Assembly (NCBI GenBank): GCA_035496715.1
Contig: DATJEK010000131.1
Location: forward strand, 1-52,169
Direction of reading: 5' to 3'
DNA from: Candidatus Eiseniibacteriota bacterium
GTDB taxonomy: Bacteria > Omnitrophota > Gorgyraeia > 2-02-FULL-51-18
DNA length: 52,169 bases
Shown: positions 852-49,975 of the stretch, in pieces
Position numbering within the stretch: the stretch's first letter is position 1
How the letters are laid out: each line of letters begins with the position of its first letter
Translations under genes and position numbers: made by a program
The notes under the pieces: generated by a model
What the model saw: the letters and a program-made list of their open reading frames with translations, nothing else
Databases searched by the model: none
Told to the model about the DNA's origin: nothing

Positions 852-854
852 CGG

Positions 855-3147: not shown

Positions 3148-3148
3148 G

Positions 3149-3424: not shown

Positions 3425-3457
3425 GGATGGATTATACCACCCGGCCGCCGGGCGCCT

Positions 3458-5022: not shown

Positions 5023-5035
5023 GATCCCGGAGAGT

Positions 5036-5371: not shown

Positions 5372-5415
5372 GTGGGATCTCCGATTAGTGGATCGTTATG
5401 GATGAATTCGAGCGG

Positions 5416-5727: not shown

Positions 5728-5730
5728 GGC

Positions 5731-8036: not shown

Positions 8037-8145
8037 CGCTTCTCCATTAAGGAAAGTGATTATAACACGGTCAACCCCGATGCCCAAAAAGAAACCCCGG
8101 CAGCTTGTGGCCGCCGGGGTTCCTCCCCCACTCGTCCGAAATCGG

Positions 8146-17430: not shown

Positions 17431-17478
17431 GGCCTGGTGATCCTTTGTCAAAAGCGGTTTTTCGTCAGCTTTTGGCAA

Positions 17479-17686
17479 CCCGGCCCGTCTCGAAAGACCC
17501 CGTCGGCTTTGCGCACACCTTGCGGCGTTTGCCCTTTACAAAAGCAAAACTTTCAATAACCAATTTTAAAAGAGCTTAAGTGATTGAAGTTTACGTGACA
17601 AGCGAACTTCTTTCAAGATCTTTATTAAGTTTTTTGGTTGAAATTATTGTTAAATCTTGGAAAGAAATGATTTCTTTTAAAAAGAA
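17479..17686 (-). promoter_or_regulatory. AT-rich intergenic island between the two giant genes; candidate sigma70-like promoter at 17588-17616
   Basis: There is a sharp drop in GC relative to the flanking sequence. The minus strand reads TTGAAA-N17-TAAACT (-35 at 17611-17616, -10 at 17588-17593), about 160 nt upstream of ATG 17430. Confidence 0.3.
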
Positions 17687-20600
17687 CTACGCAGACATGC
17701 CAACGGCGCGAAGCGCCAGGCGGGCACCCTGGAGCAGGACGCTGACGGGGATTTTTTTGGCCACGGGCAGAAGGAAGCGGAAACGGCTGTACTCGTCGCG
17801 GCGCGCCGCGCCGCTGAAAAGACGCACGAGCGTCGCCGCGTCGGGCAGGCGGTTCTCGGCATTTTCATTGTAGTACGCATAGATCTTGGGATCGACGCCT
17901 TCGAAGCGGATCTTACCGGTCCCCTCGTCGATGCGGTAGAAAGCCGCGGCCGCGCTGCCGAGACGGAACGCCTTGTTCCAGGCCAGCAGCGAATCCCCTT
18001 CCGAAGTCAGACCGCCGACGGGCACGTACACCGTGCGGCCGTTGTCGGCGCCCTCGGGGCGGCCGGCTTCGGCGTCGAAGAGATCCACGAGCGTGCCTTC
18101 GAAGTCCGCCGGGACCGAGGCCGTGAACGCTTTCTCCGAAAGCACCGACGCCTTGAGCTTCTCGAGGAGCTCGGACTGCCAGCCGGTCAATGAAGCGCCT
18201 CCGGTCAGCGCGAAACGCACGGACACGCCTTCCTTGCGGAAGAAATTATGGTGCGCGGCGGCCTGCGCGGCCATGAGGCGGAACTGCGCCTCGAACTTCT
18301 GCGGATCGCCGACGCGCGCGAAATAGTCGAGCGGCACGCGGAAGAGAACGGGAGCGCCCGCCTCCTTCTCGACGGCCGGCAGCGCGATCGAGGCGTTGAG
18401 GTCGCTCGTCTGCAGGAGGCCGTGCACGAACTGAGCGGTGACGGTTTCCGCATCGCCCTCGGAGCGGGCCCGGTCACGCAGGCGGGCATACGCGCCCTGC
18501 GGGTCGGGAATCGATAGGAGCGTTTCCTCGGCGCCGCCGGGGGCGACGTATTTGAGGCGCAGCTCGGCGCCGCCGGTCCCGCGGCCTTCTTCCAGGCGAA
18601 GCACGCGCGCGAAGCGCTCCTCGAGCTCCATCGCGAACGGCAGGCCGCGCTTTTCTTTCTGGGCCGCCCACAGCTCGAGCGCGAAGACGCCCAGCGCCTC
18701 GGTCTGGGCGGGCTCGAGCGCCAGCCGCGCGCCCTCGCCGTCCTTGCGGGACGCCTGTCGCTCGCGGCGCTGCCGCTGGATGCGCGCCTTGACCGGGGAT
18801 TCGACGTACTCCCGGTAGTCGGCGGAACGCTCGATCAGCCCGCGGGCCATGTTGACGGCGCTCAGATCCGTCCGGTCGATCTTCGGGTTCCTGAAAAGAC
18901 GCGCCAGGCGCGGGCCGTCGGTGAGGCGGCTCAGGAATTTGCCGATCGGGATCTTGTTGGGCGACATGCTCGCGTAGACCGGCACCGAATACTTGCGCCG
19001 GAGATAGTCGGTGAAGAGAATGAACTTTTCGCTGCCGGCGATCTCGCCGCAGAACCCGACGTCTTTCGCGGGCCGGTCGCGGTGCGCGGCGTTGTGGCGC
19101 GCGACCGAACCGACGATCGCGTCGATCGCGCGGAGGACCTGGGGATGGAGCTTCGCGAAGAGGTCGCCCAGCTCCGGGAGGTCCCGGCTGATGGCCACCT
19201 TCGCCCCGCCCTTCTGGGCGACGGCCTGCGTGAACACGTCGGAGATGACCTCGGCCGTCAGGTCGTTGGTCCCCACGCTCACGAAACCGGAGAGCGGGTG
19301 CTCGAGCAGTGCGTCCAGGTTCCGGTACGCGTCCACGGTCTCGACCATGATGCCGAAGAGCACGCTCTTGCGGACGGCGAGGAGCTTGTCTCCGCCCGTG
19401 ACCCCGACCGCGGCGTCGATCGCCTCCGGCAGGATCTCTTTTTCGAGATAATCCAGATCTTCCGTTCGGCGGACCATCGGGACCATGATCCGCAGTTCCG
19501 GCCGGCGGTCCGCCGGCAGGGCCGCCTGGGCCGAGTACAGTGCCGCGACCTGCCGGATCAGCAGCTCGCGCCCCAGCGGCGTCCGGTAGAAGTCGAAACC
19601 GGTGACGGGGCTCGTGTCGCCGCTGCGTTCCTGGAGCTTTCTGGCGGCGCCGAGGATGTTCTGGTTCTTGTCTTCCTGCAGGTCCATCAGGCGGAACGTC
19701 ACTTTCTTCCCGGCCAGATAGTCCCTCGAAAGGATCGCGCGGTACTGGTCCATGAGCTCGGCCAGGAATTCGTCCAGACGGCGCTCGCGTTCCGCGGGCT
19801 CGTCCCCGTTCAGCGCGTGGCGGATCAGGGTGTCGATCAGGATTTCCATCTGCGGACCCCAGATCTCCGTCCGCACGAGGCCGATGCCGTCGGCGAAGTT
19901 CTCCTCGAGACCCTCGGCGTGGTCGGCGGTGATGTTCGCGCGCAGCGGGAACGGCGTCGTCCGCGAAGCGAACCGCCGGGCCATCTCGTTCGTCTTCTCC
20001 TGGCGGTATTTCCGGATCTCGAGCTCCTCGACCCGCTCGGCGGAAGGCTCGATGAAGGCCTGGCTCTCGCCCTTGCTCTTCTTCGTGCTCAGGATCACCG
20101 TGTCGCCGACTTTCAGCGTGTCCAGGAGGCGTTTCTGGGCGGGGTCCGTCAGAAGGACCACCGCGGGCGGATTGATGAAGCTCTGCGAGACGATGACCCA
20201 GTGGCTCGAGAGCGTGGCGCTCGTCGTGATGATGCCCTTGATGCGCGTGCCGTAACGGGTCCAGATCCGGTTGATGCTGGTGACGTCCATGTTGTCACGC
20301 ACGACGAGCACCACCGGCTCGTGGTCCGCCCCGAAGCGCAGTTGATGCGTCTCGGCCTCGCGTTCGGCCGAGGACACCTGCGCCGCGATCACCTGGCGGA
20401 AGAGATCGACGACGTCGTTCAGCGTCCCCCGCAGATGCCCGACGGCCTTGCGGCGCAGCGTATAGTAGCGCTTGATCAGCATGTCCTCGTAGATCAGGCT
20501 GGCGAGATTGCGGTTTTCGCGGAGCATGCGGGCGCGCAGTTCGAGGCGCTTCTGCGGCGTCCCGACGTACTGGACGCGGAAACCCTCGAGCAGGCTGATG

Positions 20601-23600
20601 AAATTCTCCGTCACGATCGCGGACGTGGAATATTTTTTGGAGCCCGTCTGGAGGTCCGCGAGGATCCGCAGGTTGTGGCCGAGCTGGCTGCGCAGCTCAC
20701 CGGAGGCGGGATCCTGCTCCCCGACGGCGGCGATCTGCTGGTTCAACACTTCGTTGTAGGCTTCGAGGGCCCCCTGCACCGCCGACGCGCTCTGGTCCAT
20801 GTGCCGGGAGGTCCTCAGGATCTGCTCGAACTCGCGGACGAGCCGCTCGATGATGACGTCGAAGCGGTCCAGCTCGGCGGCCGCCAGCTGCTCGGCCTCG
20901 CGCACTTCGTCCGGCTTCCGGTCGGACGGATTCGCGTAGTCGTACAGCCGGGCGAGGACGAGCGATTCGGCCCTCAGGAAATCCAGGATCTTGTACAGCA
21001 TCGCCTTGTCGAGCGTGCCAACGCCCATCGAGGTGCGCTCGATCTCGTCCATGATCCGGCGCATGAGAAGCGAAGCCGGGTTGGTCTTCAGGTCGGACTC
21101 GCTGATGACCGCCGCCTCGCGGTTGACGAAGGCGAGCGCGAGCTCCTGCTCCCGGTCGCCCAGCGCCGTCCGGATCGACTCGCGGAGATTGTCCATGAGG
21201 AGGCCGAACGCGGCGATTTCGCGCTCTCTCTGCTCCGGCCGCACGGGATAAAGGATCTCCTCGGCGCTGCGCGGGCTGAAAAACGCCACCTGTCCGCTGA
21301 CGGTCTTTTCCGGAGTCGTGCCGTCGCCCTGGACGAGACGCTCTTCGGCGAGGCGGGCCCCCGCGGTCGCGCGGAGTTCCGCCTTGGCGCCGTTGCTCAG
21401 CAAGTCGACCCGGTCGATGAAACGGCTCGTGGCTTCGTGGAGGCGCACGAGCGTCGGGTTGCCTCCCTGGAACCGCGCGTACTCCCGGCCGGAAGAAGCG
21501 AAAACCCAGGCGGCGCGGTTCAGATAGCCGCGGGCGAGATCGAATTCCTCCGCGGAGCGCTCGAGCCGCGAGCGGTCTCCGGAGCGCTTCCAATCCGCAT
21601 AAGCCGAACGGGCGAGCCTCCAGTGAAAAAGTCCCAGACCGCGCTCGGCGAAACCGGCGTCGGCGAGCGTCCGCCCTTTCCTGCGCGCCGGCGCCTCTTC
21701 GAGGGCCTTCGCGTACGCGGCGAGGGCCCTTTCGTAGGCGACGGGAGTCTGGCTGTCCCGGTCGGCGCTGCGGAGATTGCCCTGGCGCAGCAGCGCGTGA
21801 CCCGACAGGATCGCGGCGGCCGACAGGCGGGAACGCAGACGCTCGACGACGGAGGGCCGGACGCGGACGGCCAGACGGAGGGCCTCTTCGTACCGCCTCA
21901 CCGCCCTTTCGGCGAGGATGCGCTGCGATTCGGTCGCGCTCAGCGTCGCTTTCTCTCCGGAAAGCCGGCGGGCGCGCGCGGACAAGCGCTCGGCGCGCTC
22001 GACGGTGGCAAACAGGAGCGCCAGCTCCTTCGACAACCGCGCCCCGCGCCGGTCGGCGGCGCGCATGAACAGGATCCTTTTTTTCTCCTTGATGGCGGCC
22101 GAATATTCCTCGATCCTCTGCTGGAGTTTCGTCCGGATTCCGCGCGCGACGCCGGGCATCCGTCCGATCTCGTCCAGCAGGCCCACTTCGAAGCCCAGGT
22201 ACTCGGGCAGGCTGTTCGAGCGCTCCTCGGCCGCGAACCGGTCGACCCTCGCGCGATATTCCTGGTACAGGCCTTCGGCCGTGAGCCCGGCGGCCGCCGC
22301 CGGGACGCTTTCCTGTTTCTTCTTCAGGAGCAGCCGGACCTCGTTCGCCAAGCCCAGCCGCCGCGCCTCGTCGAGGAGCTCGCCCGACTGGGTCCGGATC
22401 GCCTCCGCGTCCTTCAGGTCCGCGACCCGCGCCAAAAGCGCCCGGCGGCCGGACCAGACGGCTTCGAGCTCCCGGCGGCGTTCGTCGACGACCGTTTGGA
22501 TCCTGGGCTTCACCCCGTGTTCCTCGGCGCTCCGCAAAAGGAGACCGGCGCGAAGATCGAACGTGGTCGCGTCGTCGGCCTTGATCTGCCGGGCCGCGCG
22601 CTCGAGTTTCGTGCCCTCGTCGGTCCGCTGCTCGTACTCGCGGGTCACCTGGCGGCGGCGCTCGTCGACGGCGCGCGCGAGACCGCGGCGGACGTCTTCC
22701 GAAGGAACCGAAGCGAGGAAACCCTCGAGAGCCTTTTCGAACGCCTGAGGAGACTCCGAGTCGAGCCGCTGGATCTCGGGCGAGCGCCTGCGGATCTCGG
22801 CCTCCACGAACCTGCCGCGGCGCTCGGCGACGTAGGGCGCGAGCGCCTCGCGGACGGCGTCCGAGCGGCCGGAGAGCGCGTCGGCCAGGCCCGAATCGAA
22901 GCTTTCGAGAGTCGCCGCGTTCAGCGCGTCGATCCGGAGCTCCAGAAGCGACGCCTCCCGCTCGATCGCCTTCGCGTCGACGACCGGGACTTCCTGCGCC
23001 GGCGGGATCGCGGTGGTGGGCGTCACGGCGGACACGGCGGGAACCGGTTTCACCGTCGTCACGACGGGTTCCGCGGCGGCCGGCTGGGTCACGACCGGTT
23101 GAACGGCGACGGCATCCGCGGCGGAGGGTTTCGTGACGGCCGGCTGAATGACGGCGGGTTTTGTGACGGCGACGGATTCAGCGGCGGAAGGCCGGGCGGC
23201 GGTCACCGGTTTCGCGGCGGACGAAGGCGCGGCGCGTTTCACGGGCGCGGCGGCGGGCGCGAGATAGGCGGCTTCCAGAGCGGCATGCTCCTGCCTCTCC
23301 GCGGTCGTGATCGGCTTCTCGCTGAGATACGACGCGAGCGTGAAACCGTTTCTCTTTTTCCAATTGCTCCACGCCGGAGCCTTGATCGCCAGACGGCGCA
23401 CGAGATAGCTGTCATTCAACGCCGCCCCTTCGGGCGCGGCGGCCAGGATGCGCCGCACGCCGGCGAGGCGGTTGTCGGGGCTGTGGCTGGACACCTGGCG
23501 ATACAGCGGCAGGACCCGCTCCTCATCTTTGTGCTGGTTGAGCCACGACCAGAGCGTGTTGCCGGCCACCGCCTCGATGCCGCGGGCGGTCATGAGCTCG

Positions 23601-26600
23601 GCCAGTTCGTTCACGGTGAATTCGCGGTATGGATTGCCTTCCAGGATCGCGGCCAGACCCGCGTTCACCGAGGTCACGCGAGCGGCGAAGAGGTCGGCCG
23701 ACGTTTTCCTGAACGAGACCCCCTCGGCCTCGAGCGTCGCTCGGCCCAGAAGGTCCCCGAGGTCGTAGATCTGCGTGGAGCTGAGCGTGGAATTGGCGAC
23801 GAGGTTGGCGACCGTCGCCTCGGTCGATTTTTCCTTCAGATCCGCGATCGCACGGCGCAACTCGGCCCAGTTGGCCTTGCTGCGCGGCCCCAGCTCCGCC
23901 AGCCTCGCGCCGTAAACCGCGTCGAGCGACTGCCAGAGGACGGCCGTCCTGTTGCCGAGGAGGGCGGACAAAAACGGTCCGCTCGTGTCGATCGAGAGGA
24001 CGACGGCCGCGTGCGGCAGCCGGTTCACGGTTTCCCCGGTTTCCGCGTCGACGATCTTCACGGTCCAGCTTTCGTCGCTGACGGCGAAATAACGCCCGCC
24101 CTCGAGAAAGCGCACGGTATGCGTCACGCCGGCCCGGACGGGTTCGCGATACGCGAGACGGCCCTGCGGATCCACGGGAAGGCCGTCTTCCAGGTCGAAC
24201 AGCGTCACCCCGGCGGGCGAGGCGGCCGCGAGCCGTCGTCCGTCGGGCGAGAGCGCCACGCTGTCGTGGTTCGGGACCGTCACCGAGCCGGCGAGCCGGC
24301 GCAGGAGGGCGTCGTAAATGTGGATCTTTCCGTCGATCGTCGCGAAATAAACGGTCGTCCCCCCGGGCAGGACGTGCGCGCTGCGGATCGCGGATCCCAG
24401 ATCCAATTCTTCGCGGACGAACGGCAGGTGCGCGCGAATCTCCCAGGGGACGACCCTGCCGTCGGCTCCGGCCGTGAAAACCCTCCCCGCCCGCGGAACG
24501 ACCGCGGCGTCGGTGACGGCCCTCAGGTGACGAAAATATTCCGCGGGACCCGGGCGCTGAGACGGCGTTTCCGCGCCTTCAATTTTCCAGAAGAGGACTT
24601 CCCCTTGGGCGTGCATCGAAATCAGCGTCGAGTCGTCCAGGAACGCGAGTTTCGAAATGCCGGATTGGCCCGGGATCGACGCGATCAGCGCCCCGCTGGC
24701 GGCGTTCCAGATCAGGATCCCGGAGTAATCCCGCGAATTCGCGGTCGCGACCAGGCGCCCGGACGGCGAGAAGACGGCGGCCGATATGGCGCTTCCCTGG
24801 TCGAGCCTGCTCTGCAATTCTCCCGTCTGGGCGTCCCAGATGAGCGCCGTGTTGTCCGCGGAGCCGGTCAGGAACCACCGGCCGTCCGGCGACACCGCCG
24901 TCGTCACGAGACTGTCCTGATGACCCGCCGCGATCACCTTCTGTCCGAAAAACGACCGGAGCTCCCGCGCGGTGCGCGCCTCGTCCAGGCGCCTCATCTG
25001 GGAGACGACCCAGGCGACGTCGCGGGCGTTGACCTGCTCGTCCAAAGCCACGAGCAGCGCGTGGAAGAGGCGGAAGAGGGATTCCCGGTCATGGACGGAT
25101 GACGCGGCCTCCACCCGGGCCTCGATGTCCCGTTTGACGGCGTCTTTTTCCTCCCAGCCGTTGGGGCGGGCGCGATGGATGTCGTAGAGCAGGCCCAGGC
25201 CCAGCGATTCGTAAATCTGCTGGCGCTCGATCTCGAGCGCGGGCTCGTGCGCGGCGACGGCCGGAGCCGGAGACTGGCGGCGGTCCTTCATCGATTCGAC
25301 CACGAGCTTAAGGAACGCGGCCTTGCCCCGCGCGTCTCCCGGATAGAGGGCGTCCGCGGAACGGCGCAGCGCGTACAATTCGTCCTCTCCGTAGGCCGGC
25401 GCCTGGCCCGGCGACGCGGGCCGCCGGTATTCGGGAAAAGCCAGGAGTCCCGCCGCCAGCGGATTGAAGAGCGGGGATCGCTCCGCCTGGTGGACGACGT
25501 TCATCGCGACGCCCGCGATCATCTGGAACTTCTGGAACGAGCGCGGATCGGTGACCCTCGCCGAGAAGATGTTGAACGCGACGGTCCCCTTGGGAGAAAG
25601 ATACCAGGGTGTCCCGTTCTTGCGCATGACCGTGTCCCCGGCCAGCGCCGTGTCGTACATCGTGCTGCGCGAGAGGTTGCCGATCGGCGCCAGGCGCGAC
25701 CAGTAGTCTTCCATGAACTTGAAGATGAAAACCAGGCGCTTGTCGAAGCCCGTGCTCGGCTTCGTGTGGCCGACGTGGATGTGGATGGACGAGCGCAGCT
25801 GCGTGTCGCCGCGCTGACGCGTGCGCTGCCATTCCTCCAGGGCGTGCTGGATGCGCAGGAGGCCCTCGTTCAGCTGGTGGAAGCTCTTCTCGTCGTTGCT
25901 CAGGATGTCCGTGTTGAATTCGATCGACTTGTCCTCGAGGTTGAACGCGGAGCTGTCGATCTTCATGAGCCAGCCCCAGCGCCCCGGCTGCTCGGTGAAC
26001 AGGCCGTCGGGGAACCGGAGATCGTCGAGAAGGGTCGAGCGCAGGAACGTGTAAAACCGCCCGGTCTCGAAATTGTCGTACGCGCCGCTCGGGTCGGTGA
26101 CCGCGATCTCGATCTCGAACCCGAACGTCATGTCCGCGGGAAGCCCCTTCACCCCCGAGAGCGAGTAGAAAAAGTTCGTGTCGATCTTCGAGAGGAGTTC
26201 GAGGTAGGCCGCGTAGGCGCCGCTCGAGAGGGCCGCGAGGCTCGCGGCCGGGCCGTCGACGAGACGTTCCAGGAATTCACGCGGCTGGGCCGACAGGTCG
26301 AGCGAGGCGGCCGCCCGCAGGTAGAGCTCGAGGGTGTGCGGGTTGAGCGCGGACAGCTGCCGGGAGACCGCGACGATGAGCTCGCCGGCCGGCTTGATCC
26401 TCGGCGCGTCGCCGTAGTCGTGGATCGCCTTCACGAGCGCGTTCGTCCGGACCGGCACGTCGAGTGCCCCGGGGATGCGGCGCAGGATGTCGTAGATCTT
26501 GGCGCGGAGCTCCGGCGACAGCGGGCGTTGGAGCGCCAGCGACTTCTGCAGGAGGAAAACCAGCGGCGCGGCGTCGAGCGGTTCGGGCAGGAGCCCGTAA

Positions 26601-29600
26601 AAGAGCTCGAGGTCCGTAAAAATCCTCATCGCGCCGGATTCGTCCCGCTCCATCGAGCGGAAAAAGTCCTGCCAGGCCTCGACGTCCGATTCGCCCAGCC
26701 GGTTCACGCGGCGGACCTTCGCGCCGAGCTCCGCCTCCAGCTGCTGCAGCCCCTCGGAAGTCGGGACCACGAGGCTGTCCTCGGGAGCCCACAGCGAACG
26801 GCCGTCCGGCGAAGGATCGGTGGGCTGGATGCCGAGATCGCGGCGCGCGAGCAGGAACCGCTCCGCCTGGCGGACCACCGGTGAAGTCTCCGAAGCGGCC
26901 GGGTCCGCCTGAATGCGCTTCAACTCGTCGTACAACGTCCGCGCGCGCGAACGCAGCGCGGACGATTGCGCGTCGCGTCCCAGGCGAAGATCGACCATCG
27001 CCAGCTGGGCCAGCAGGCCCTGCACCGCTCCGGCGGGGCGGGTCAGGCGGAAAGAGCCCGGCAGGAGGATTTCGGTGCCGTCTTTCTTTTCCTCCTCGGC
27101 GAGCCTGGCGCCCAGGGCGCCGGGATCGATCCGGTCCAGGATCGGATACTCGAGGCCCGCTCGGACGATGAATTCCTCGACGGGCTCGTAGTCGACGTTG
27201 CTCAGGTGGGTGCCGAAGTAATCGATCTGATCGGGCGAAACGCGCACCTTGTAGATCGACCCGGCGTGTCCGGAGTAGGTGGCCGATTCCCGCGGATCCG
27301 CGGACAGGTAGAGCGGATCCGCCGGCCGCATCGCCTCTCCCGGGAAGAAGCCCTGCCGCCGAGACCCGTGATAGAGGACGAACGATTCGGTGTAGGGATA
27401 ACGGCGCATCAGGTGCCACAGCGAGGCGCGTTCCGCCTTTTCGGCGTGCGACCGCAGGACGGCGGCCAGTTCGCGCCGGTCGCCCCGCCGGAACGCGATG
27501 AGCTCGCGCGCGAAACCCAGAAGCCCTTCCGCGCCCACGGTTTCCGCGAGGCTCGAGAGGGTGAACGCGACTTTCTCCTCCTCCGTCAGGCCGTTTCCTT
27601 CGGTCCAATACCCTTCCACGTTGAAGACCGAATACACACCGGCGGTTTCGGCCGCGGAATAACGCGCCAGAACGGCGGAATAGCCTCCCGCCCGCTCGAA
27701 TCCTTCCAGGATGCCGTCGACCCGCCGGCGGCCCTCTTCGGATTCCGTCACGGCCAGGAGCTTCAGGACGGCTTTCACGGCGGTCGGATCGAGGACGAAC
27801 CGGGTCAGCGCGGTTCCTTCGGGAAGCGTGAGCTTGTCGTCGAATTTGTCGATGAGCTCGTCGGTCAATTCGGCCGCGATCGCCGACCGGAGCTTCCTGA
27901 CGAAGAGGACGATCCTGCGGGGAGTCGCGGTATGCCGCGGGTCGAACTCCTCGTCGAGCGATTTCATCTTCCTCTCCCACTCCAGACGCGCGGGCGCATC
28001 CGACGCGGGAATCAAGCGGCGCTCGACGGCCAGCCGCGCGCCCCGCTCCCCCTCGTCTCCCTCGCCGCGTCCCTGGTGGAGGTCCTTCAGGATGTCTTCC
28101 CTGGAACGCGTGCGCGGCAATTCCTTGCTGCCGCGGATCGACGGGACTTCCGTCCGGCGCACCATGAGCACCAGAAGCGGGATGAGCCCCACCGCGCCGG
28201 TCACGAGCCGTCGGAAAAAGTCGCGCATCATGGAGTCGAACTCGCGCTTCTCGCGCAGCTCCTGGCGGCCTCCGAACACCATCGCCGCGGCGTCCTGGGC
28301 GCCGCGTTCGACCGCCTCCGGCGAATCGGTCCGGAACCGCACGGGCGCGAAGGGCGGAGCGGCCATGTGCTTGTCTTTTTCCACGACCTCGAGCACGGCT
28401 TCGTTCGGGCGGTCGCCGCGGGAGATCCGGATGGCCTCGATCTGGTCGCGGCGCGCGCGGTCGGCCGTCATTCTCGAGAGCGCGTCTCCGAGCTCCCGCT
28501 GAATCGGCTCGGTCTGGGCGATCCCTCGGCCGGTCTCGTCGCGCACCTCGACCGCGAGCTCGGAAAGCGCGACGCGCCGCTCCGGCATGATCCAGCGGGA
28601 CGTGAGCCCGGGCCAGTACAGGAGTGAGGCGAGGAGCAGGCCGTACGCCACCGTGCCGAGCGGCCGGTAATTGGCGAGGAGAAAATCCCGGACGGACCGC
28701 AGAAGGCGCATGATTTTTTTGCCCAGGCGCGCTCCCCGCACATCCCGCACGTCCGGAGGGGCGATGAGATACCGGTCCCATTCCCGGATGAGCCCATCCC
28801 AAACCCGGTAGCGGTTCGTCAGTTCGTCCAGCATCCGCTCGCCTTCCTCGGTCACCGCGCCGCGCCGCGCCATCGCGTCGATCGTCGCGAGCAGGCGCCT
28901 GACGTGCCGGATGTTCCGGCCGGCCGCCGCGTGCGCGACCGCCGCCGGGATCAGGTCGTCGCGGAGATAATAGGTCGCGGTCAGGTCGTCGCGGAACGAC
29001 GCTTCGGCGAGAAACGCGCTGGCTTCCACGAAATAGCGGTAGAGCTGTTCGGGAACGCTCACGACGTCCAGCTGCAGGCTCCGGGGAACCTTGACGGGCT
29101 CCTCGTCTCCGAGGAGCGCCCGTTCCGGATGCTCCTGATGGAACTCGTGATGGTCGTTTTCGTGAATCACCGTGGAGGCCAGTTCGGCGTCGGACTGCGT
29201 GATCGGCGAGGCCAGGCGCGTCATGAACGGGTAATCCCGGTGGGCGCTTCCGGCCGCCCCGTGTTCCAGCTCGGACAGCACGATCAGATGGGTGTTCCGC
29301 AGGAGGCTCTGGTAACGCGAGCGCTCGTCGGTCCCCAGAAGCCGGACGATGTCGAACGCGCGGCCGAGGGCCGTCAGGGCTTCACGATCCACCCGCGGCT
29401 CGAAATTGCCGCCGACTACCGGGATCCGCGTGCCGGGCACGAGCCGGGCCTTCTTGAAAATCTCGACGCCCTGGTCGATCTTGCGGGAGATCCGTTCGAG
29501 CTCCGCGTTGATCGTGGCCGCCGGGAGATTCAGTTGTTTGAGCTGCATCACGCGCATCAGCGACGCCGCCAGCCACGGCCAGCGGTTCTCGACGAACTCG

Positions 29601-38600: not shown

Positions 38601-41600
38601 TCGCGCAGCGCCAGGGCCGACCGCGCAATTTCCCGCCCTTCCTCGGTAGCGGCCAGGCGCGCGCCGAACACGGACCTCGCTTCGTGCTCGCTGAATGCCG
38701 TCCTGCCGTCGACGCTCAAGAGCACCAGGTCCTCGCTGTCTTTCGGGCGGACCGTGATCACGTGGCGCCTCTCGGAGGAGTAGCCGCGCGTGCCTTCGGG
38801 CATTTCCCAAATCTCGGTGAGGTACGGATAGACCTGACGCTCTTCCTGATCCTCGAGGCTCACTTTCAGGGAGGCCAGCCTTACCGGAGGAGGATTCAGG
38901 ATCGAATGGTTCTTGATCGCGCGAAGCGTCGCGGCGTCGGCCGGATCGGACCCGGATTTTTCGACGTAACACCGCTGCGCCGCGATCTCGAGAGCCCCGC
39001 TCCCGTCGGCCACGCGGAACCGGAGATGGCCGGGAGCGGCGTTGATCGGCAGATCGATGAGCGGATAAGGGGTCCCGTCCACCACGGCCACGAGCTGGTC
39101 GGTCGCACCCCCGTCGTGCGGCGCGATCTCGCTGCCCACGATGAGCCTCTTCGAAAACCGCAGCCACGTCGTCGAACGGTCCGCGAGATCGGCGCGCGCG
39201 ATGTAAAATCCTTTCAGGTCCCGCCCGACGACGACGCGGGCATTGGACGGGCCGTCGCCGATCGTGAAGATCAATCGCTGCCAGGGGCCCAGCGCCAGGG
39301 TCGTCTTCCCCTCGAAAGCCGTCGCGGCCAGGCGCGCGCCGCGGTAGGAAACCTCCTCTTCCAGGAAGGCCTTGAACTTCTTGGTGCTGATGCGGTTGGA
39401 CTCGTTCACGGGATACACGAGCTTCGCGTAGGCGGCGGCGTTCTTCTCGGTCAGGACGAAGGGCTCGAATCCCGCCTTCAGGAGGACGTAATTCATGATG
39501 AGGTTGGAGGTGCGCTTGTTGCCGTCGTGGAAGCCCTGCAGGTTCACGAGGCCCGTGAAGACGCGCGCGGCGACCGTGATCGCGTAGTCCGGGTCCGCCT
39601 CGATGCGCTGCGCGACCTCGTCCGAGAAGAGATAGGCGAAGACGGCCTGCATCTCGTCGAACTTGTCGGCGTCGTAGAAACCGGCGCCACTGATCAGGCC
39701 TTTTTTGCTCAGCGCCATGTGGAAATCCCTGAACTCCGTGGCCAGCCAGCGCGGCGCCATCGGCCCGTTCATGACGAGCTTGTTGAACCGCCGGATGGCC
39801 GTCCCGTACTGCCGGATCGCCTGTTCGTTGAACGTCTCCGGGTCGAAATGCTGGTCCGGGTCCTCGATCTTGTCGTTGATCTCGCGGAGTCTGCGGCCCA
39901 TCGTGCGCAGGCGGCGCAGCACCAGCCGCTCGTCCAGGCCCTTCTCGATCTCCCGGTCGTACCAGTGGCTGCCCGTTTCGGCGGCGGGCGAAGCGGCCGC
40001 GATCAGCGCGTCCTCGAGGACCGAGTCGAAATCGGCGAACCGGTTGCCGGTGGAGGGGATGAGGCTCTGGATCCCCTCGAGGACGCGGAGCGCCGCCAGC
40101 TTTTGCCCGTGCTCGGCGAATTCTTTGGCGCCTTCGAGCCTCTCCCGGGCGCGCGTGATGAAAATCTGCTCGGCGGCGCTCATCGGATAGGCGGAGTGGC
40201 GCGCCCTCTCGAGGACGATGTCGAGCCTCGAGAGCGTGTTGGCGAAACTGGCCAGACGCGCGCCGGACGTCGGCTGAGCGCCGTGCGGAGGAAGCGCGGC
40301 GAGCGCCGCCCGCTCGTCCGCGTCGGGGTTCAGCGCGATCGCGTAGGCGCTGAACGGCTCCAGGAATCCGCGCCGGACGAAGCGGTCTCGCAGGTAGACC
40401 GGATAGCCCATCGCCGCGCTGTCGAGAAACGGCGGATACCAGGTGTCTCCGCGCACCGCGTGCACGCCGTCGGCGGCCAGGCCGTCCAGGAGCGCCTTGC
40501 GGACCGGCACCGCGAGCTTTCCGCCGCGGTACGCGGGATGGAGCAGGAAATCCGCGATGATCACGTCGTTTTCCTTGAAACCGACTCGCTCGTATCCGGG
40601 CGTCAGCGGCCTCTCCCCTTCGCTCAGGGCGAACTCATGGCGCTTCACCTCGGTGAACGGCACCGCCAGGACGAAACCGACCGGGACCGAGGGGTTTTTG
40701 TCGTCGGAGAAAACGTAGGCGCGGCCTTTCGGGACGCGGGGGTTGATCTTTTCCAGCAGAAGCGCGTCCTGCGCCTCCCGCTCGACACCGCGGATCTGGC
40801 TCTGGACGTAGCGGGCCTCCCGGGCGGTGACGCGCTCGGGCACGAGCAGGGTGTCGCGCAGCTCGTTGTCGGGCTGGGGCGTGCCGTAACGAGACATCTT
40901 GAACGAGCGGTCGATGAAGAGCGGCTCGAACGCCTTCGTGTCGAAAATCCGCAGGAATTCTTTCATGTCGACTTTTTTGGCGCGGATGCCGCCGCCCAGA
41001 TCGATCTGCTCATAGGCCAGCCGCGCCCCGGAAAATCCGGAGCGGGCCGCTTCGTCCGCGGTCAGGACGGCCGACGCGGGGAGCCCCGCCTTTTCCAGCG
41101 CGCGCCGCACCGTCTCGCCGGCCGCCCCGGAGAGGTCCGACATCGGCGGAGGACCGTCGTTGATGCGGCTCATCGACGCGCGCTCGATCGGCACCTGCAC
41201 GCGGTCGAGCTCCTCTTTCTGGCGCTCCACTTCGACGCGGAACCGCTCGCGCGCCGCCGCCGAAGAAAAGTCGACGGTGTCGAACGCCAGCAGTCCCTCG
41301 AAACCGCGGGTCAGCTCGGGGCGTCCGCTGAGCGCCGCGTACTCGGAAAGCGTCTGCCGGGCGTTGAAAACCACCTGGTCGGCGAAAAACATCGGCTCGT
41401 CCACGCTCGCGTCGGGCACGAGGGCCGGCCTCTGCGAGGGGTAGTTCAGCCCGAAGCTCCGCTGGTTCTCCTCGAGGTCGGCGCCCGACAGGCCGATGAC
41501 GAGCTGGCCCGGAAGGCCGGTCACTTCGGCGCGGTCCCAGACGCCTCGATAAAAAAACATCCTGAAATCGGGCGGAAGAGACCCCTCCTCGAGGAGCTCC

Positions 41601-44600
41601 TTCACCGCCACTTTCACGGTCATCTCGGTGATCGAATGGGCGCCGTGGTCCATGAACCCTTCGCCGTTGACGACGACCATCTTCGGCTTTTCGTCCCGGA
41701 GGATGTTCTTCATCCGCTCCAGGTCGGCGCGCTTGGCCGTGCCCTGACGCTCCTGGGCGTACCAGCTCGAGCTGATCGGGTAATGGATGTCGGCGTGCGC
41801 GACGCCGCGCGCCATGAGCTCGGTCTGCTCCTCGGGAAAGCGCAGGAAGACCTTGATGTCCTGCATGAGCTTCAGGTCCGTCGACCCCCAGCGCGGCTTG
41901 GCGTCCGAATAGGCGCCGAGCGCCTCACGGACGGCGCGCACGGCGGCCTGGTTCGCGAGCCGTCCTTTCAGGCCCGACTGGAAATTCATGCGCAGAAGGA
42001 GGAGCTTCGCCCGCAGCTCTTGTTCGCGCGCGGGCATCAAAGACCAGGTGTCGAAATTCTCGGGGTTCCCGGTGAGCGTCTTCCCCTTCAGGACTTCGAT
42101 GAGCTCGCGAAGGTATTTTTCGTCGGCCGCGCGGAACGAGGCCTCGCTCGCGGCTTCGGCGGCGACCGCCGCCGTGTCGGTGTCCGAAAATTCGGCCGCG
42201 CGCGAGAGCGCCGCGAGCGCGTAGGCGTCGGCCACGGCGGTATATCCCGGAGCCGTATAAAAGGAAGCCAGCCGCTGTCCGGCCTTGCCGGCCGGGGCCG
42301 CCCACTGGCTCACCTGGAACTGGGCCGCCAGCGAAAGGTCGTCGAGATGCGGGCCGATGTGGACGATCGTGTCGCCGGGCGCCAGACCCAGCCGGGCGGT
42401 GACTTCTTCCGGCCGCACCAGGCTCGCTTCGACGGCCGACGCGGTGCGCCCGCGCAGCGACTCCCAGGACTCGGAAGCCGTGAGCGCCGCCAGGTGCGTC
42501 CTGCGGATGGCGAGGATCCGCGCGTCTTCCTTGCCGGCGGATTCCAGAAAATCGGAGACCTCGAGCGCGCGGACGGGCTTCCCCGTCTCCTTCGACAGCG
42601 CGATGAAAAGCCGCGCGCGCATCGCCTCGGTCCATTCCACGTCGTGGAAATCCCACGGGTGCGTCTGGTAGCGCAGCGTGCCCGAAGAGCTGGGCTCGGT
42701 GATGAGGACGCTGCCTTCCCCGCCGGCGCGCAGCGCGGTGACCGGATAATCCGGCGACGCGTCGCCCTCGACGAAGCGGCGGACCGACTCGCGTTTTTCC
42801 TTGCCGTTGATGATCGTGATCACCGTCGGCGACCCGAGAAGGAGCTCGCGGGGCCCCAGCGTCACTCCGCCGATGCGGATTTTCCCGTCGGCCGTCTTGA
42901 AGTGCTGCATGCCGCCGCGGTCCTTGATGTTGCCGGCGGCCGCGTGATAGCTGAGCAGCTGCAGCGTCACGCCCTGGTCGAAGGCGGTGCCCTTTTCGTT
43001 GAACGCGATGTGGCCCTCGCCGGTGTACGAAGGCCCCGCGCTGAAGAGGACCACGTCCGCGCCGCCGCGGTCGGTGACGAGCCGCGACATCGACCGCGCG
43101 TAGGCGTCCAGGGCCTCCAGATACGCGCGCTGCGGATGACCCGCCTCCAGCGTCCCTTTCAGGAAATCGTCCAGCCGGATCCCCTCGCGGTCGATGGATT
43201 CGTTCACGGCGCGGAACGCCGCCGCGTCGAGGCGGTTGGCGTCCGGGCGGTCGATGTCGCCGCTCGAGACGTCGCCGTAGAAAAGCCGGCGCTTGTCGCC
43301 GCGGATGCCGATCTTGTCGAACGCGTGATTCAGCTCGTTGGCGTACGAATAATAGTCGTCCCGCGACTGCGGGAAGATGCTGTCCAGATGCGACGCGAAC
43401 ACGCGTCCCATGTCGGGTTTTTCCGAAAGGTCCACCCCGGCGGACGCCAGGAACGTCCGTGTCGGCTCGTCCCAGTTGCCCCAGGCGTTGAGATAGGAGG
43501 CGAGCGTCGTCAGGCCCAGCCACTGGGTGTTGCCGGTGGCGAAGAGGATGAACACGTCCCGGTCCTTCTGTCCCGCCTCGTCGTATTGCCGGCGTTTTTT
43601 CTGGATGGCGCCCAGGAGCGCCGCGGCCTGGAGCGCGCCCGTGTGCGCGATGTCCTCTCCGATCCGGAGCTTCGTCTTCCCGGCGCGGCCGAACACCTCT
43701 TCGTAGAGCGCGATCCCCTCGGGCCGGCCGTCGGACAGAGCCAGGCGGGCGCCGGGCGGGTTCGCCGTCGAACGCGCGACGATGGTTTTCCACGCGCGGG
43801 CGCCGACGCTCGACTCGGCGAGGCTGCGCTCGAGGCGGGCGACGGTCATCGCCCGGAATTCGTCCTCATGGACGGCCACGAAGAGGCCCGCCATCTGCGC
43901 GGAAGCGAAACTCTGGTGCCAGCCGAATCCGTCGAAGCCGAAACGCCGCAGGAGCGCGTTCACGGGCTGGAGGATGAGGTTGAGCGGCCAGATGTAGCCC
44001 GTCGGCCGTTCGACCGCGCGCGGGAACACGTAGATTTTGAGCGCGTCGCCGTCCCGCTTGACCGCCGCCAGGTCGAAATCGATGCTCATGGATTTGAGAA
44101 CCGCGTTGATCCGGCGAAGCCAGGCCTTCAACGCCTCCGGCCGCCCCTCCAGCACGAAACCCCTGGCCTTCCATCCGCTCAGCTCCCGGACCGAGACCTC
44201 GTCGCTCGTGAAAAGCGGCAGCGACGCCGCCCGCTCGACCGGAAGCGTCCCGTCGGGGAAGATCTTCCTCATCTCGCTCCAGGGATACAGCTGGTTGTGG
44301 TCATGACCCAGAACGGACGCGCCGCCCTTCACGCCTTCGTTGCGGAAGGTGACGTACGCCGAAGCCGAATCCGCAAGATCCACGAACGTGTCGGCCCCGC
44401 CGTCGGTGAGGACCTGCGGCCGGTGAGCGGTCGCGATGTCGAGCTCGGTGCCCCGGACGGTCGGAAAATCGTTGGTCCGGACCGTACGGTCGGCCCAGGA
44501 AACGCGCGTGCGCGCGTCGTCGAACGTGTCGAGGCAGAGCGGGCAGCGGTCCTTCGGATAAAGCCTCGTGTCGGCGGCCTTGCGCGCGGGATTCAGGATG

Positions 44601-47600
44601 GCGGCGAAAGAGTTTTCGAAGCGGCGCGTCCGCGACGCCTCTCCGACCCAGGTCACGTCCGGAACGAGGCCGGCGGCGATGTCCGACTCGGCGACGGCGC
44701 GCAGAACGTCGTTCGACGGCGCCGCAGCCAGCCGCGCCCCGAAAAGAGTCCCCTGCTCCGGCTTGGAGTTCAATTTCACGATCTCTTCGCGGAGCGCGCG
44801 GAAGTCCGCGGTCAGCGCCGTCAGCTTGGTCCTCACCCCGCGCGAACGGTAGGAGCTCATTCCCGACCAACGCATCACGACGGCGATCGCCCGACCGACC
44901 TGGTTGACCGCCTCCACGGTGGCGGCGTCGCCGCGGCGGACCTGGTTTTGGAGCGCCGAAGCGGCGTTACGGATGAGGTAGGATCCGAGCCTGCGGTGCG
45001 CGTTCAGTTTAAGGAGGCGTCCGGCCAGTACTTCCGCCCGCCCGGCGAGCTTCTTTTCTTCGGCGGAGAGTCTGGCGCCCTCCGGGGCGCGGCCGTTCGG
45101 CGCGGACCCAGGTTTCGTGTCGAGGAGAACGCTTGCCGTGGTGAAGGGTCCTTCGGGCCTCGTCTCGGTCCGGAGACTGAAGGTTCCGACCTTGGGACGG
45201 CTCTCGGAGCCGCTTCCCTCGACCAGAAAACGAACCTGTTTGACGCCCACGCCGCGGCCGCCGAAAAACTGGCCGTAATTCTCGTCGCCTTTCGTGCTCA
45301 GCCCCCAGATGGAAAGGAGCGTGTCGGCGGAAAACGCGTCGATCTCCCCGTCCGTGACGCGGGAGTGCCCCTGCGGGATGTAGGCGCCGACCACGAGCTT
45401 GCGGTCCACGTTGCGACGGAAAATGCCGCGGGCCGACACGGCTTCGAGGATCGCGGGCGCTGTCATCGAGTCCGCCCCCGGCACCGCTTCCCGAAGGCCC
45501 TGGATCGCCAGGAGGCGCTCCGGCTCGAACGCCGCGAGCTCCTCCGGCGGGACGGGCAGATAAAATTCCTCCTGGGTCAAAAGCGCCCCGTCCCTGTCGC
45601 GGCGGTAGACGCCCTTCTCCTTGGCTTTCCTCTTCAAGTCCTCGACCGGCACGGAACCGGGATTCGTGACGGAGTAAAGGAGCTTCCCGTCGGGCTGCTG
45701 CCGCAGGAGCACTTCCACGAGCTCCCGCCGGCCCGCCGGCTGCGTCTGCTGGGCGTCGATGGCGTTTTTGATGAATTCACGGACCACCGACTCGAGCTCG
45801 AACTCGGCCAGGCCCGTCAGAAGAAGCGGCTGGGTCATCTCGACCCGGAACTGCACGCGGCGGTCGCGGACGATGTCCCGCACGACCTCGCTCTGGAAAT
45901 AATCGCGGATCACTTTGCCCGCGTCGATCGACCGGCCGTCGGGCTCGCGCGGCGTGCGGTCCGGATACAGCTTCATGTAGTCGCGCGCCAGGATGCGGAT
46001 CGACTGCTTGAGCTCGTCCATGATCGCGTTGGGTTCCTTGCCGGCGGGGTCGATCGGTTCGCCGAACACGACCGTGTAACGGTACGGCGTGGCCCAGCCG
46101 CGACGCCCGAGGAGGCGGCGGAAGTACATCGTGACGAAGTTCCACAGCGTGAACTGGTGCGGGATGTTCGTGTCGATGAAGAACGGCACGATCGGCTTGC
46201 CGCTCTCGGCCGAGATCTCGGCGACGCTCTGCTTGAAATGACCGAGGTTTCGTTCGAGCCCTTTGAACGGATCGCCGCGGTGGATGTGCGGGCGTCCCGC
46301 CGGGAAGACCGCGTACACCGAACCCGGCCTGCTCAGCCGGCGGCGGATCTGCTCTTTCGGCGAGGCCGAAAAGGGCCGGACTCGGAGCGTCCAGGCGGCG
46401 AGGCGCTGGAGCTTGTTGAGCCGGTCCTCGTGCTCGATCACCAGCCGGTAGCTGGCGTCGGGCTGGCGGATCGAGCGCACCAGGCCCGTCAACCGCGCGA
46501 AGAAGAGCCGCCAGCGGCCCATGCGGCCGATCTGCCTGGCGATCACCTCGTCCCGGTAGCCGCTCTTCAGCGCGAACACCCCGGAGAGGCGCGCCATGAA
46601 GCGCTGGAGGAAATTGGAATGATCGAGCTGGGCGATAAAATGCGGCATGCGTCCGTCTCGGAGGATCGCTTCGGACGTGAGGATCAGGCCGTCGGTGCCG
46701 TGCGCGTTCAGATGGTTGCCGGCCAGGAGAAAAGACTGTCTCTCGGCCTGCGGCAGATTTTCCAGGCCCTCGACCTCCACCTTCACCTGGCGGCCGATCA
46801 CCTGTTCATAGACCGCCCCCCAGAGGGCGGGACCGAAAAAGTTCCTGTAGAAAAGCTTCGTCCGCCGCCGGGCGGCCTCCTCGCTGACGGGGGCCTGCTT
46901 CGCGAGACGGGCGCCCTGCAGTTCCGTCTGCCGGTGCGCGAGCCAGTCTTCGACCGCGCGCTGCGCCTGATCGACCGAAACGTGCAGCAGGCGTCCGCCG
47001 ATCTGCAGGATCTCCGTCTCCCCGGTCTGGGTCGGGTTCACGGCGATCGCGAACCGGCCCTGAGCCGAAACCGAAGACGGCACCGCGTAGACTTCCCAGA
47101 TCTGAGCCAGATACGGCGTCCCGCTTCCGTATTCGTCGACGAGGTTGAGATTGATCGTCCGCGCGGCGCGGCGCGCGTTGCCGTGCCGGATCTGGCGCAG
47201 GATCGCGTCGTCGGCCGGCTCGCCGGTGATTTTCTCGATCGTCGCCCGCCGGCCGGAAACGAGGAGCCGCCCGTCCGGCTGAACCGAAAGATCCAAGTGC
47301 CGCGCGCGCACGTCGATCGGAAGATCCATGAGCGGATACTCCCTCGAACCGTCGAGGATCGCGCTCAGCACGTAGCCCGACTCGAGGTCCACGCCGCCGA
47401 GAGTCAGCGAACGCTCGAAGCGCAGCCGTCCCGAGGGGGTGCCGATCAAATCGGCCTTCGCCACCGAGAAGCCTTTCGCGTCGCGCCACACGGCGACGCG
47501 GGCGTTCGAACCCGACGTCCCGAGCGTGAGGACCAGCGTCTCTCCGGGGGCGAGCGAGACGGCCGCCTGCCCGTCCAGCGCGATCTGCCCCGAAGGGAGC

Positions 47601-49825: not shown

Positions 49826-49975
49826 GAAATAGAGAGGTGTCTATTTTTTTTAAACTCAACCGGTTGGCGGTATGTGCTTTGTCGATCGGCAATTACGTAC
49901 GTTTTGGAGAAGTATGCCTGATCCCATTCTCAAATACAAATCGGAATCGAGGCGGCCCCGAGAGGGAGAATAAGC
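49826..49975 (-). promoter_or_regulatory. AT-rich intergenic island upstream of giant gene 2 (promoter/5' leader region)
   Basis: 150 nt of AT-rich sequence lie between the panE stop (49976) and the longest-ORF start. The AT-richness continues into the first ~50 nt of the ORF, so the true start may lie further downstream. Confidence 0.3.

Follow-up and report, generated by a model that had tools for sequence, protein, structure and literature searches.

A giant Omnitrophota protein in which an invariant linker peptide separates exchangeable cassettes between a hydrolase-like head and a conserved tail

We found that a 32-kb reading frame in a stretch of DNA from an uncultivated Omnitrophota bacterium (contig DATJEK010000131.1, positions 1 to 52,169; this whole 52,169-nucleotide stretch is hereafter the window) encodes a modular precursor, with exchangeable cassettes that are set apart by an invariant linker peptide and lie between a hydrolase-like head and a conserved tail. 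The open reading frame (ORF; 17687..49825, minus strand, as are all window coordinates below unless stated otherwise) comprises 10,712 amino acids (aa) plus a stop, or ~1.19 MDa, and has a GTG start that aligns with Met1 of its homologues. Judging from the sequence, the reading that we favour, with slightly less than even confidence, is that of an exported precursor that would be cut at the junction motif, possibly by its own TIKI-like head, to yield products acting elsewhere.

The giant gene, its head, junction motif and tail

The first-pass annotation of the window had proposed that this frame is one translation unit rather than an operon with lost stops. An ORF listing reproduced its coordinates exactly, with no internal stop, and the coding signal is continuous, with a GC content by codon position of 0.69/0.46/0.87 overall and a third-position GC (GC3) of 0.82-0.91 in all 22 consecutive blocks of 500 codons. 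The 3,986-aa antisense ORF that had been mentioned as a reason for caution is indeed present (37829..49789, plus strand). Because its codon-position GC of 0.87/0.46/0.68 mirrors the sense pattern, this antisense ORF is non-coding. Furthermore, no DNA repeats able to seed misassembly were found in the window; the sole DNA self-matches are two stretches of 260-330 bp with 66-67% identity between diverged paralogs of the head (N-module), and self-BLASTP revealed no internal protein repeats in the giant. The family head and tail stand at the two extremities and, since the head opens all relatives and the tail closes complete relatives of 1.4-5.8 thousand aa (kaa), both ends belong to one gene. Collectively, these results indicate that the 32-kb reading frame is one real gene, coding throughout.

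The same annotation had counted 24 internal junctions. These reflect a real feature that it did not name, namely a pentapeptide, GARL[A/S/G], present in 25 copies. It had also overlooked the conserved head and tail, the neighbouring paralog and the riboswitch before that paralog. Shuffled sequences would give 1.05 GARL and 0.15 GARLA, compared to the 25 and 18 observed, and near-variant copies number 0 compared to 3.9 expected. The fifth residue is Ala in 18 copies, Ser in six and Gly in one. Counted from the head, and being GARLA unless indicated, the copies lie at aa 581 (motif 1; 48071..48085), 971 (2; 46901..46915), 1583 (3, GARLS; 45065..45079), 1696 (4; 44726..44740), 2025 (5; 43739..43753), 2933 (6; 41015..41029), 3188 (7; 40250..40264), 3496 (8; 39326..39340), 3721 (9; 38651..38665), 3885 (10; 38159..38173), 4289 (11, GARLS; 36947..36961), 4648 (12; 35870..35884), 4759 (13, GARLS; 35537..35551), 5141 (14, GARLS; 34391..34405), 5599 (15, GARLS; 33017..33031), 6008 (16; 31790..31804), 6703 (17; 29705..29719), 7031 (18, GARLG; 28721..28735), 7262 (19; 28028..28042), 7572 (20; 27098..27112), 8639 (21; 23897..23911), 9261 (22, GARLS; 22031..22045), 9489 (23; 21347..21361) and 10365 (24; 18719..18733), with copy 25 at aa 10700 (17714-17728) in the C-terminal helix of the tail. 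The first copy directly follows the head, at aa 581 in the giant and 585 in the adjacent paralog (described below), and another one opens the tail, at aa 10365 and 2755, respectively; the giant's tail-start copy falls in a region with a predicted local distance difference test score (pLDDT) below 50. No copy was found inside the giant's head or any of its recognised domains.

The codons used for the motif vary from copy to copy (GGC/GGG/GGA/GGT; GCG/GCC/GCA; CGC/CGG/CGT/AGA/AGG; CTG/CTC/TTG) and the flanks are unconserved, from which it follows that selection acts on the peptide and not on the DNA. A DNA-level origin as a recombination site or repeat is excluded by these differing codons together with a GC content of 40-66% across the family genomes. 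Cleavage by signal peptidase I at S-G-A|R was likewise set aside, as there is no upstream hydrophobic region and the invariant R-L-A would be left unexplained.

The motif is shared by the family. GARLA, with 175 copies, is the commonest pentamer in the family cargo regions, and GARMA (48) and GARLS (46) come next. A logo built from 380 distinct family sites reads (P/S/T/Q)x3-4 - G-A-R-(L/M)-(A/S) - (E)x3-4, and hydropathy dips locally at these sites. The density of GARL is 1.35 per kaa in family ORFs. In the remaining ORFs of the loci, taken together, it is 0.22 per kaa (34 copies), and most of these copies belong to N-terminally truncated ORFs adjoining a family gene; the window's housekeeping proteins contain none.

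Next, we considered the head (aa ~60-525; 48251..49648), a conserved module of ~470 aa that likely belongs to the TIKI/EreA/ChaN superfamily. The structure paper on RRSP defines TIKI-superfamily enzymes by a set of two His and two Glu plus a conserved Arg, exemplified by H85/E113 in Bcr135 and by E3900-x-H3902, E3930, R4001 and H4030 in RRSP (PMC6254334). The invariant residues of the head, H90, E118, E171, R457 and H485 plus D88, are kept in 102 of 107 heads and give the same D/E-x-H...E...E...R...H arrangement, in which both the H-to-E and the R-to-H spacing are 28, as in Bcr135 and RRSP (PMC6254334). An AlphaFold2 (AF2) model from a 25-sequence alignment (pLDDT 82.7) has an alpha/beta core, with strands beside the conserved residues, that is split by a helical insertion of ~270 aa. 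Furthermore, the commonest weak Pfam match to heads is Cofac_haem_bdg, the ChaN family of the TIKI superfamily, in 4 of 25 and then 11 of 60 members, whereas no unrelated Pfam family recurred in more than two. We therefore consider the head to be a likely but unproven TIKI-fold hydrolase, for which peptidase activity is predicted at most. The insertion (aa 173-471) gave weak Foldseek matches to alpha-pore-forming toxins (SmhB, AhlB, YaxA), Tc toxins, chemoreceptors and SMC arms, all with E > 0.1. Weak, non-significant matches of this kind are usual for long helical bundles.

The tail, or C-module (aa 10370-10712; 17690..18718), is a conserved alpha/beta module of ~350 aa (model pLDDT 75) that ends in the giant with the amphipathic helix QGARLALRAVGMSA-COOH; family tails always end in such a helix, followed by ...(S/A)A-COOH. 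A homologue search with the tail alone returned nothing at E<=1e-3. A hidden Markov model (HMM) of the tail, run against 1.84 billion representative proteins, retrieved only 48 clusters, in which the tail is always C-terminal. All 48 are Cys-poor and nearly all of the long, complete-looking members also carry the head. The largest tail-HMM member is 5,841 aa long, so that no head-to-tail member seen exceeds the giant in length. A beta-barrel, a pore former and an RTX-like domain were excluded as identities of the tail by the model and the fold search.

The family can also be placed phylogenetically. The lineage had been left unassigned in the first-pass annotation; homologues and synteny place the gene in Omnitrophota. 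Residues 1-1200 of the giant match 23 proteins, and all the named ones are Candidatus Omnitrophota. The only part that all of these homologues have in common with the giant in local BLASTP is its aa ~7-525, which matches the N-terminus of each homologue; they continue with methyltransferase, CPBP, WD40, His-phosphatase plus LOG, FN3, DOT1, RHS, SecA_DEAD or PAS–histidine kinase–response regulator (PAS-HK-RR) domains; in two of them (P0010 and P0012, 1.6-1.7 kaa) there is a second match, to the last ~280 aa of the giant, that reaches its final residue. A scan for the head in one genome per GTDB species gave 187 tblastn-confirmed stretches encoding the N-module, of which 78 loci were kept, nearly all of them in Candidatus Omnitrophota metagenome-assembled genomes and some labelled 'Planctomycetia'. 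No orthologue with more than 49% head identity was present among the GTDB species representatives. In every related locus the ORF begins with the head. The shortest complete ORF encodes 535 aa and the longest 3,773 aa, while many others are longer than 3,800 aa and extend beyond the end of the locus.

Genomes with the family carry several copies, which frequently form tandem pairs and in one case probably a triplet, and arrays of two or three such genes in tandem seem to be common. Large, N-terminally truncated, GARL-bearing ORFs stand directly upstream of head-bearing genes in L048 (ORFs 2-9748, 9980-18400 and 18404-21505), L024, L029, L053 and L065. In L061 an 846-aa ORF consisting of a head only overlaps a 2,143-aa ORF that has a tail and no head, probably representing one frameshifted gene.

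Cargo cassettes and their turnover

Between a 580-aa head segment and a 13-aa end piece, the junction motifs delimit 24 cassettes of 111-1,067 aa each, which hold unrelated enzymes or binding domains and whose content and order vary among family members. The first-pass annotation had listed over 20 enzyme and interaction domains. We checked these calls by Pfam, NCBIfam and PDB sequence searches and by inspection of motifs. About half of the list was confirmed by HMM or PDB searches and the total was overstated, with ~7-8 domain types supported and ~16 of the 24 cassettes having no detectable relative.

The best supported cassettes are of enzyme type. The PlsC-type acyltransferase region (aa 1015-1276; 45998..46783) has its PF01553 core at aa 1015-1088 (30.8 bits compared to a cut-off of 23) and its cassette has a 30% identical counterpart in L016. 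A NagB-like glucosamine-6-phosphate deaminase fold at aa 2237-2430 (42536..43117) matches PDB entry 2bkv (E 3e-10) and NCBIfam PRK02122 (E 2e-26). The D-2-hydroxyacid/phosphoglycerate dehydrogenase-like domain, upheld by profile and PDB searches, spans aa 3947-4281 (36983..37987) and fills the cassette at aa 3885-4289. A phosphoenolpyruvate (PEP)-utilising enzyme (aa 9852-10273; 19007..20272; E 2.5e-29) comprises a mobile His domain at aa 9852-9912 (LSSHWVIV) and a PEP-binding domain at aa 9960-10273, with SVGTNDL in place of SxGTNDL and a catalytic-type xCGE motif (FCGEIAG, Cys10259). The WD40 beta-propeller at aa 8290-8612 (23990..24958) was likewise borne out by the searches.

A Fic/Doc-like domain at aa 3395-3477 (39395..39643) also stood, at 24.5 bits against a Pfam cut-off of 24, and FICD and XopAC match it as well. 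Its motif is degenerate, being QGFHDGNKR instead of HxFx(D/E)GN(G/K)R, so that the canonical catalytic His is replaced; this cassette may be a pseudo-enzyme or the user of a shifted His.

Other calls held in part. Of the two kinases proposed, one is supported as a Hanks-type Ser/Thr kinase-like domain (aa 4912-5066; 34628..35092; HRDLKPAN, DLG and GTPGY motifs), where the Pkinase score of 28 bits (E 2e-6) is below the cut-off of 31.7, and the second was not confirmed. For the GHKL ATPase, the N-box EFIKNAIDA is present at aa 1350, in a region that may represent such a domain (aa 1343-1399; 45629..45799), with a weak HATPase_c match of E 0.024. The supposed transmembrane (TM) hairpin resolved in hydropathy plots into one strong segment (aa 7202-7230; 28136..28222) and one weaker segment (aa 7056-7074; 28604-28660), and the amidoligase-like module into a weak Amidoligase_2 match of E 0.18. 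The HExxH peptidase came down to a single bare HExxH at aa 6888 without a confirmed peptidase around it, and the HIT/GalT, LmbE, GNAT and PARP-like modules found no confirmation in profile, PDB or motif checks. A homologue search with aa 6703-8290, the region of the proposed HExxH, TM, PARP and amidoligase modules, gave nothing at E<=1e-3, which leaves these calls unsupported, and PDB sequence searches of aa 5057-8280 and 8640-9960 gave nothing at E<=1.

Next, we compared cassettes among loci. The segment at aa 5141-5599 of the giant, which contains an orphan cassette (aa 5146-5598; 33032..34390), matches aa 590-1049 of the family gene in L021 with 41% identity, where it is the first cassette after the head with GARL on both sides; a metagenome scan with aa 5141-5598 found no close relative. 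The giant's aa 4289-4648 match L021 aa 1546-1905, and its aa 3885-4289 match L012 aa 2895-3314. In both loci the homologous cassettes have the motif at both ends, and those shared with L021 stand in a different order there. As the homologues are motif-bounded and reordered elsewhere, the cassettes behave like exchangeable units delimited by the motif.

The giant gene lies beside genes for PhoU and PanE (ketopantoate reductase; 49976-52169), and this PhoU-PanE-[family gene] synteny recurs in L003, L004, L008 and L021. At this site the family gene encodes 2,120 aa in L003 and 10,712 aa in the window, with different cassettes, so that the cargo appears to turn over rapidly at a fixed chromosomal site.

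Proposed export and processing, and competing explanations

The giant begins with a signal peptide (aa 1-45; 49691..49825) consisting of a basic n-region, the hydrophobic core WLRLLSAALIVTFLA and an AFA|D signal-peptidase site, and the AF2 model of the head has a helix at aa 19-42. The signal peptide of the paralog has an AMA|G site. Furthermore, the giant contains 7 Cys (0.065%) and the paralog 0.06%, compared to ~1% in neighbouring housekeeping proteins, which is a ~15-fold depletion. The combination of a cleavable Sec-type signal peptide with Cys depletion suggests that the giant protein is exported. The Cys residues are at aa 381, 1761, 1764, 3619, 5400, 5401 and 10259, the last one being the catalytic-type Cys of the PEP-utilising domain; the CxxC at 1761/1764 and the CC at 5400/5401, beside a GDLKPAN kinase-like loop, may be functional. 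A hydropathy scan, the sole basis of these counts, gives one or two TM-like segments and at most three hydrophobic segments in the whole protein, of which the one at aa 7202-7230 could be a stop-transfer anchor.

We hypothesize that the protein would be exported via its Sec-type signal peptide as a ~1.2-MDa precursor, and that cuts at the GAR(L/M)(A/S) junctions would then give ~25 separate products, with the precursor's own TIKI-like head as the most economical candidate protease. Under this hypothesis, the gene would be the functional equivalent of a viral polyprotein or a MARTX effector array. Because many cassettes need ATP, NAD, PEP or acyl donors, the released enzymes are expected to act in a cytoplasm-like compartment, most plausibly that of the cell, host or prey, that carries these attached episymbionts. 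A riboswitch before the downstream paralog may tie expression of the locus to cyclic-di-nucleotide signalling. In its fullest form, as a self-processing secreted polyprotein whose head cuts every junction to deploy ~25 shuffled enzymes and binding proteins on or into hosts under cyclic-di-nucleotide control, the proposal is tentative and, taken as a whole, rather unlikely.

Several observations weigh against export followed by cleavage and delivery. Cleavage at the motif is inferred from sequence, and the most distant head-bearing relatives (P0015-P0023) lack the motif. For the head, all Cofac_haem_bdg matches are below the curated cut-off (best E 0.0019), Foldseek with the head model places the erythromycin esterase EreC at rank 2 with E 0.26 and a template-modelling score (TM-score) of ~0.2, and head profiles run against PDB sequences gave no match beyond coiled-coil noise. 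Besides proteases, TIKI-fold members include esterases (the erythromycin esterases) and the haem-binding ChaN (PMC6254334). The tail model has no match among PDB folds (best E 0.046, TM-score <=0.24), no secretion genes were found in the 52-kb window or beside the gene for P0012, and delivery into another cell is pure inference, with no translocation device recognised. ATP-, NAD- or PEP-dependent enzymes make little sense in the periplasm, and the TM-like segment at aa 7202-7230 could leave the C-terminal third of the protein in the cytoplasm. Finally, the Fic cassette lacks its catalytic His, and therefore some cassettes may be non-enzymatic.

We next weighed other explanations of the same architecture. 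One that is possible, if somewhat unlikely, is that the chain is never cut and forms a surface- or membrane-tethered coat, adhesion or multi-enzyme scaffold, in which the motif would be a structural element or a docking site for a partner, the head or tail, a chaperone or an export factor. A pentapeptide that stays invariant while the Pro/Ser/Glu-rich linker around it is unconserved usually marks a site that an enzyme recognises, and the hydrolase-type residue set is intact in 102/107 heads, both of which argue against this scaffold; however, the C-terminal motif copy is inside a predicted helix and not a loop, and the WD40 domain and many of the orphan cassettes could be interaction modules. 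Published views favour membrane-anchored extracellular coats or adhesins (PMC10066038), a notion that sits poorly with the one or two TM-like segments at most in the giant compared to a mean of ~22 in published giants of at least 10 kaa.

Alternatively, the motif may be cut by a separate protease of the bacterium or of its host or prey, while the head does something else, for example working as an esterase on lipids or glycans of the envelope, or binding a cofactor. The tail end ...SA/...AA resembles C-termini recognised by PDZ-containing C-terminal processing proteases, which would suit such an arrangement, as would the inclusion of erythromycin esterases and haem-binding ChaN in the TIKI fold (PMC6254334) and the ChaN family being the best Pfam match of the heads. 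Nevertheless, no protease gene is conserved beside the family genes in the window and at P0012, and the motif tracks the closer head subfamily and is absent from P0015-P0023. This absence with distant heads fits enzyme-substrate co-evolution, and we regard a separate protease as improbable.

A multi-enzyme metabolic cluster that stays in the cytoplasm or is anchored in the inner membrane of the producer, with the N-terminal segment as an anchor only, appears very unlikely. Such multi-enzyme giants are described as class 1 by Nielsen & Lui (bioRxiv 10.64898/2026.06.07.730766), and the kinase, dehydrogenase, PEP-utilising, NagB and acyltransferase cassettes use cytoplasmic cofactors. However, the basic n-region and AXA site predict export of everything downstream, a Cys content lowered 15-fold is unusual among this genome's cytoplasmic enzymes, the cassettes form no recognisable pathway, and the junction motif would be left unexplained. 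Lastly, although long chance ORFs occur locally, such as the 3,986-aa antisense one, it is hardly credible that the giant is a chimeric assembly, a stop-less operon or a chance ORF in GC-rich DNA, given a coding-type GC pattern in 22/22 blocks that is mirrored in the antisense ORF, a window without repeats that could seed misassembly, a family head and tail at the extremities with one junction motif running throughout, and a neighbouring paralog that is independently present in a public protein library.

The exported, motif-cleaved precursor that we favour can be compared with known systems. The first-pass annotation had described giant multi-domain genes as rare in bacteria, which does not hold for Omnitrophota, where multi-enzyme giant ORFs are common and already described. 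Many genomes from several classes of the phylum contain ORFs of more than 20 kb (Seymour 2023, PMC10066038), proteins reach 85,804 aa ('Archaeovorin'-type; West-Roberts 2023, bioRxiv 10.1101/2023.11.21.568195), and a catalogue of 916 proteins of at least 10 kaa includes a 'multi-enzyme metabolic cluster' class (Nielsen & Lui 2026, bioRxiv 10.64898/2026.06.07.730766). The giant resembles these proteins in its phylum, its length of more than 10 kaa, its N-terminal signal peptide and its largely unannotatable sequence, in which many enzyme-type Pfam families (HATPase_c, PPDK/PEP-utilising, kinases, WD40) occur without a dominant repeat. At 10,712 aa, with a signal peptide and many Pfam families without repeat in an Omnitrophota genome, the ORF has the features of the multi-enzyme giant class.

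It differs in having one or two TM-like segments compared to a mean of ~22. The divergent SecA_DEAD domain and numerous TM regions that West-Roberts and colleagues describe for their proteins are not seen in the giant: no SecA_DEAD, C39 or S8 domain was detected, and no chunk matched SecA at E<=1. A distant family member, P0020, does carry SecA_DEAD. Type II secretion system (T2SS), type IV pilus (T4P)/pilus and glycoside hydrolase genes, the published flank pattern, are absent from the flanks in the window. Neither West-Roberts nor Nielsen & Lui mention a junction motif or a TIKI/TraB domain. The size and multi-enzyme class is thus already known. The head-motif-cassette-tail architecture and its riboswitch link appear to be undescribed for Omnitrophota giants; full-text searches of the published accounts met no mention of a TIKI-like head, a GAR(L/M)(A/S) motif, a conserved tail or a riboswitch.

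The MARTX toxins (Vibrio RtxA) are similarly very large and Cys-poor, and their conserved termini bracket a variable array of unrelated effectors that differs between strains. To free the MARTX effectors, the linkers between domains are cleaved between a Leu and a small residue that follows it, and a cut at GARL|A/S would fit this rule. RRSP, one of the MARTX effectors, is a TIKI-fold endopeptidase in its own right (PMC6254334). In contrast to the giant with its signal peptide, MARTX proteins have none and use type I secretion, and they contain glycine-rich A/B/C repeats and a C80 cysteine protease domain activated by inositol hexakisphosphate (InsP6), which are not in the giant; no Pfam match to C80 or RTX and no internal repeats were found in it. 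With the MARTX-defining parts absent, the relation is therefore one of analogy and not membership.

The head shares its alpha/beta core and residue arrangement with the TIKI/TraB-PrgY/erythromycin esterase/ChaN proteins and differs from them by the ~270-aa insertion that splits its core and by the lack of a significant sequence or fold match. Viral polyproteins with 3C-like sites likewise have unrelated units in one frame separated by a short recurrent peptide, and polymorphic toxins and polyvalent conflict proteins join a conserved trafficking module to variable cargo. Unlike these, the giant is a chromosomal bacterial gene among housekeeping genes, and no immunity, phage or conjugation genes were found near it in the window or near the gene for P0012.

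As to how Omnitrophota giants work, the invariant pentapeptide, hydrolase-like head and conserved tail of this family offer a testable answer for one family. Whether the giants function as a single chain or are cleaved has been raised as an open question, with the lack of known cleavage points noted as an obstacle to parsing them (West-Roberts, bioRxiv 10.1101/2023.11.21.568195). The motif makes such cleavage directly testable, with neo-termini at the motif as a proteomic readout, and gives coordinates for cutting Omnitrophota giants in silico for structure prediction. The orthologous locus, which encodes 2.1 kaa in one genome and 10.7 kaa in the window, provides a handle on cassette shuffling. 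If the proposal holds in its fullest form, motif cleavage would be the first rule for parsing Omnitrophota giants into functional units, and the family would represent a new class of precursors for effector delivery, modular in build and evolving through the exchange of cassettes.

The adjacent paralog, its riboswitch and the surrounding genes

Directly downstream of the giant gene is the paralog (8146..17430), which encodes 3,094 aa from an ATG at 17430 and is identical to the public-library protein P0024. It has a signal peptide, a head (44% identity), three GARL[A/S] motifs and a tail (34% identity), and carries different cargo. One stretch of 1,928 aa in it (aa 827-2755) is free of the motif, and the sole Pfam match of the paralog is a weak one to Big_15.

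An aptamer of the c-di-GMP-I riboswitch clan (cyclic di-GMP; Rfam) was found at 17471-17543, in the AT-rich spacer between the giant's stop and the paralog's ATG and 40 nt before the latter, with a sigma70-like promoter (17616-17588) upstream of it. Like c-di-GMP-I (GEMM-I, RF01051) elements, it stands in a 5' leader after a promoter-like site. It differs in its marginal score, 36.6 bits compared to the RF01051 gathering score of 35 over a full-length aptamer match, and in matching the GGC variant model as well, below the threshold of that model. In view of this second match, the ligand may be c-di-GMP or another dinucleotide.

The same element lies between tandem family genes in L009 (9750-9822; 49.6 bits), L023 (7983-8054; 42.7 bits) and L003 (7276-7351; 36.8 bits), the last one being the syntenic locus with the same riboswitch arrangement. 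The riboswitch connects the family with lifestyle switching of the c-di-GMP type. No such element was found before the giant gene or at several other tandem pairs, which excludes it as a general feature of the family.

Besides PanE and PhoU, the window flanks encode pyruvate kinase, thioredoxin, SulP, a TPR protein, an M15 dipeptidase and IlvD. All genes of the window are on the minus strand with ~67% GC and are separated by AT-rich intergenic spacers; those at 17431-17686 and 49826-49975 are strongly AT-rich, with runs of A and T. With this gene GC content the window stands at the upper end of the values seen among the related loci kept (median 51%; highest 66%, in L021).

Directly upstream of family genes, tRNA genes were seen in L013 (854-924, 6923-7153 and 15879-16271, with clusters on both sides) and in L039 (9763-9836), and these adjoining tRNA genes may be relevant to the movement or expression of family genes. 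Finally, ~0.9 kb of the window (3458-4395) contains no ORF with clear coding-type GC3; a 525-aa ORF (3458-5035) overlaps the gene for the M15 D-Ala-D-Ala dipeptidase in another frame, and this region may be a degraded or frameshifted gene.

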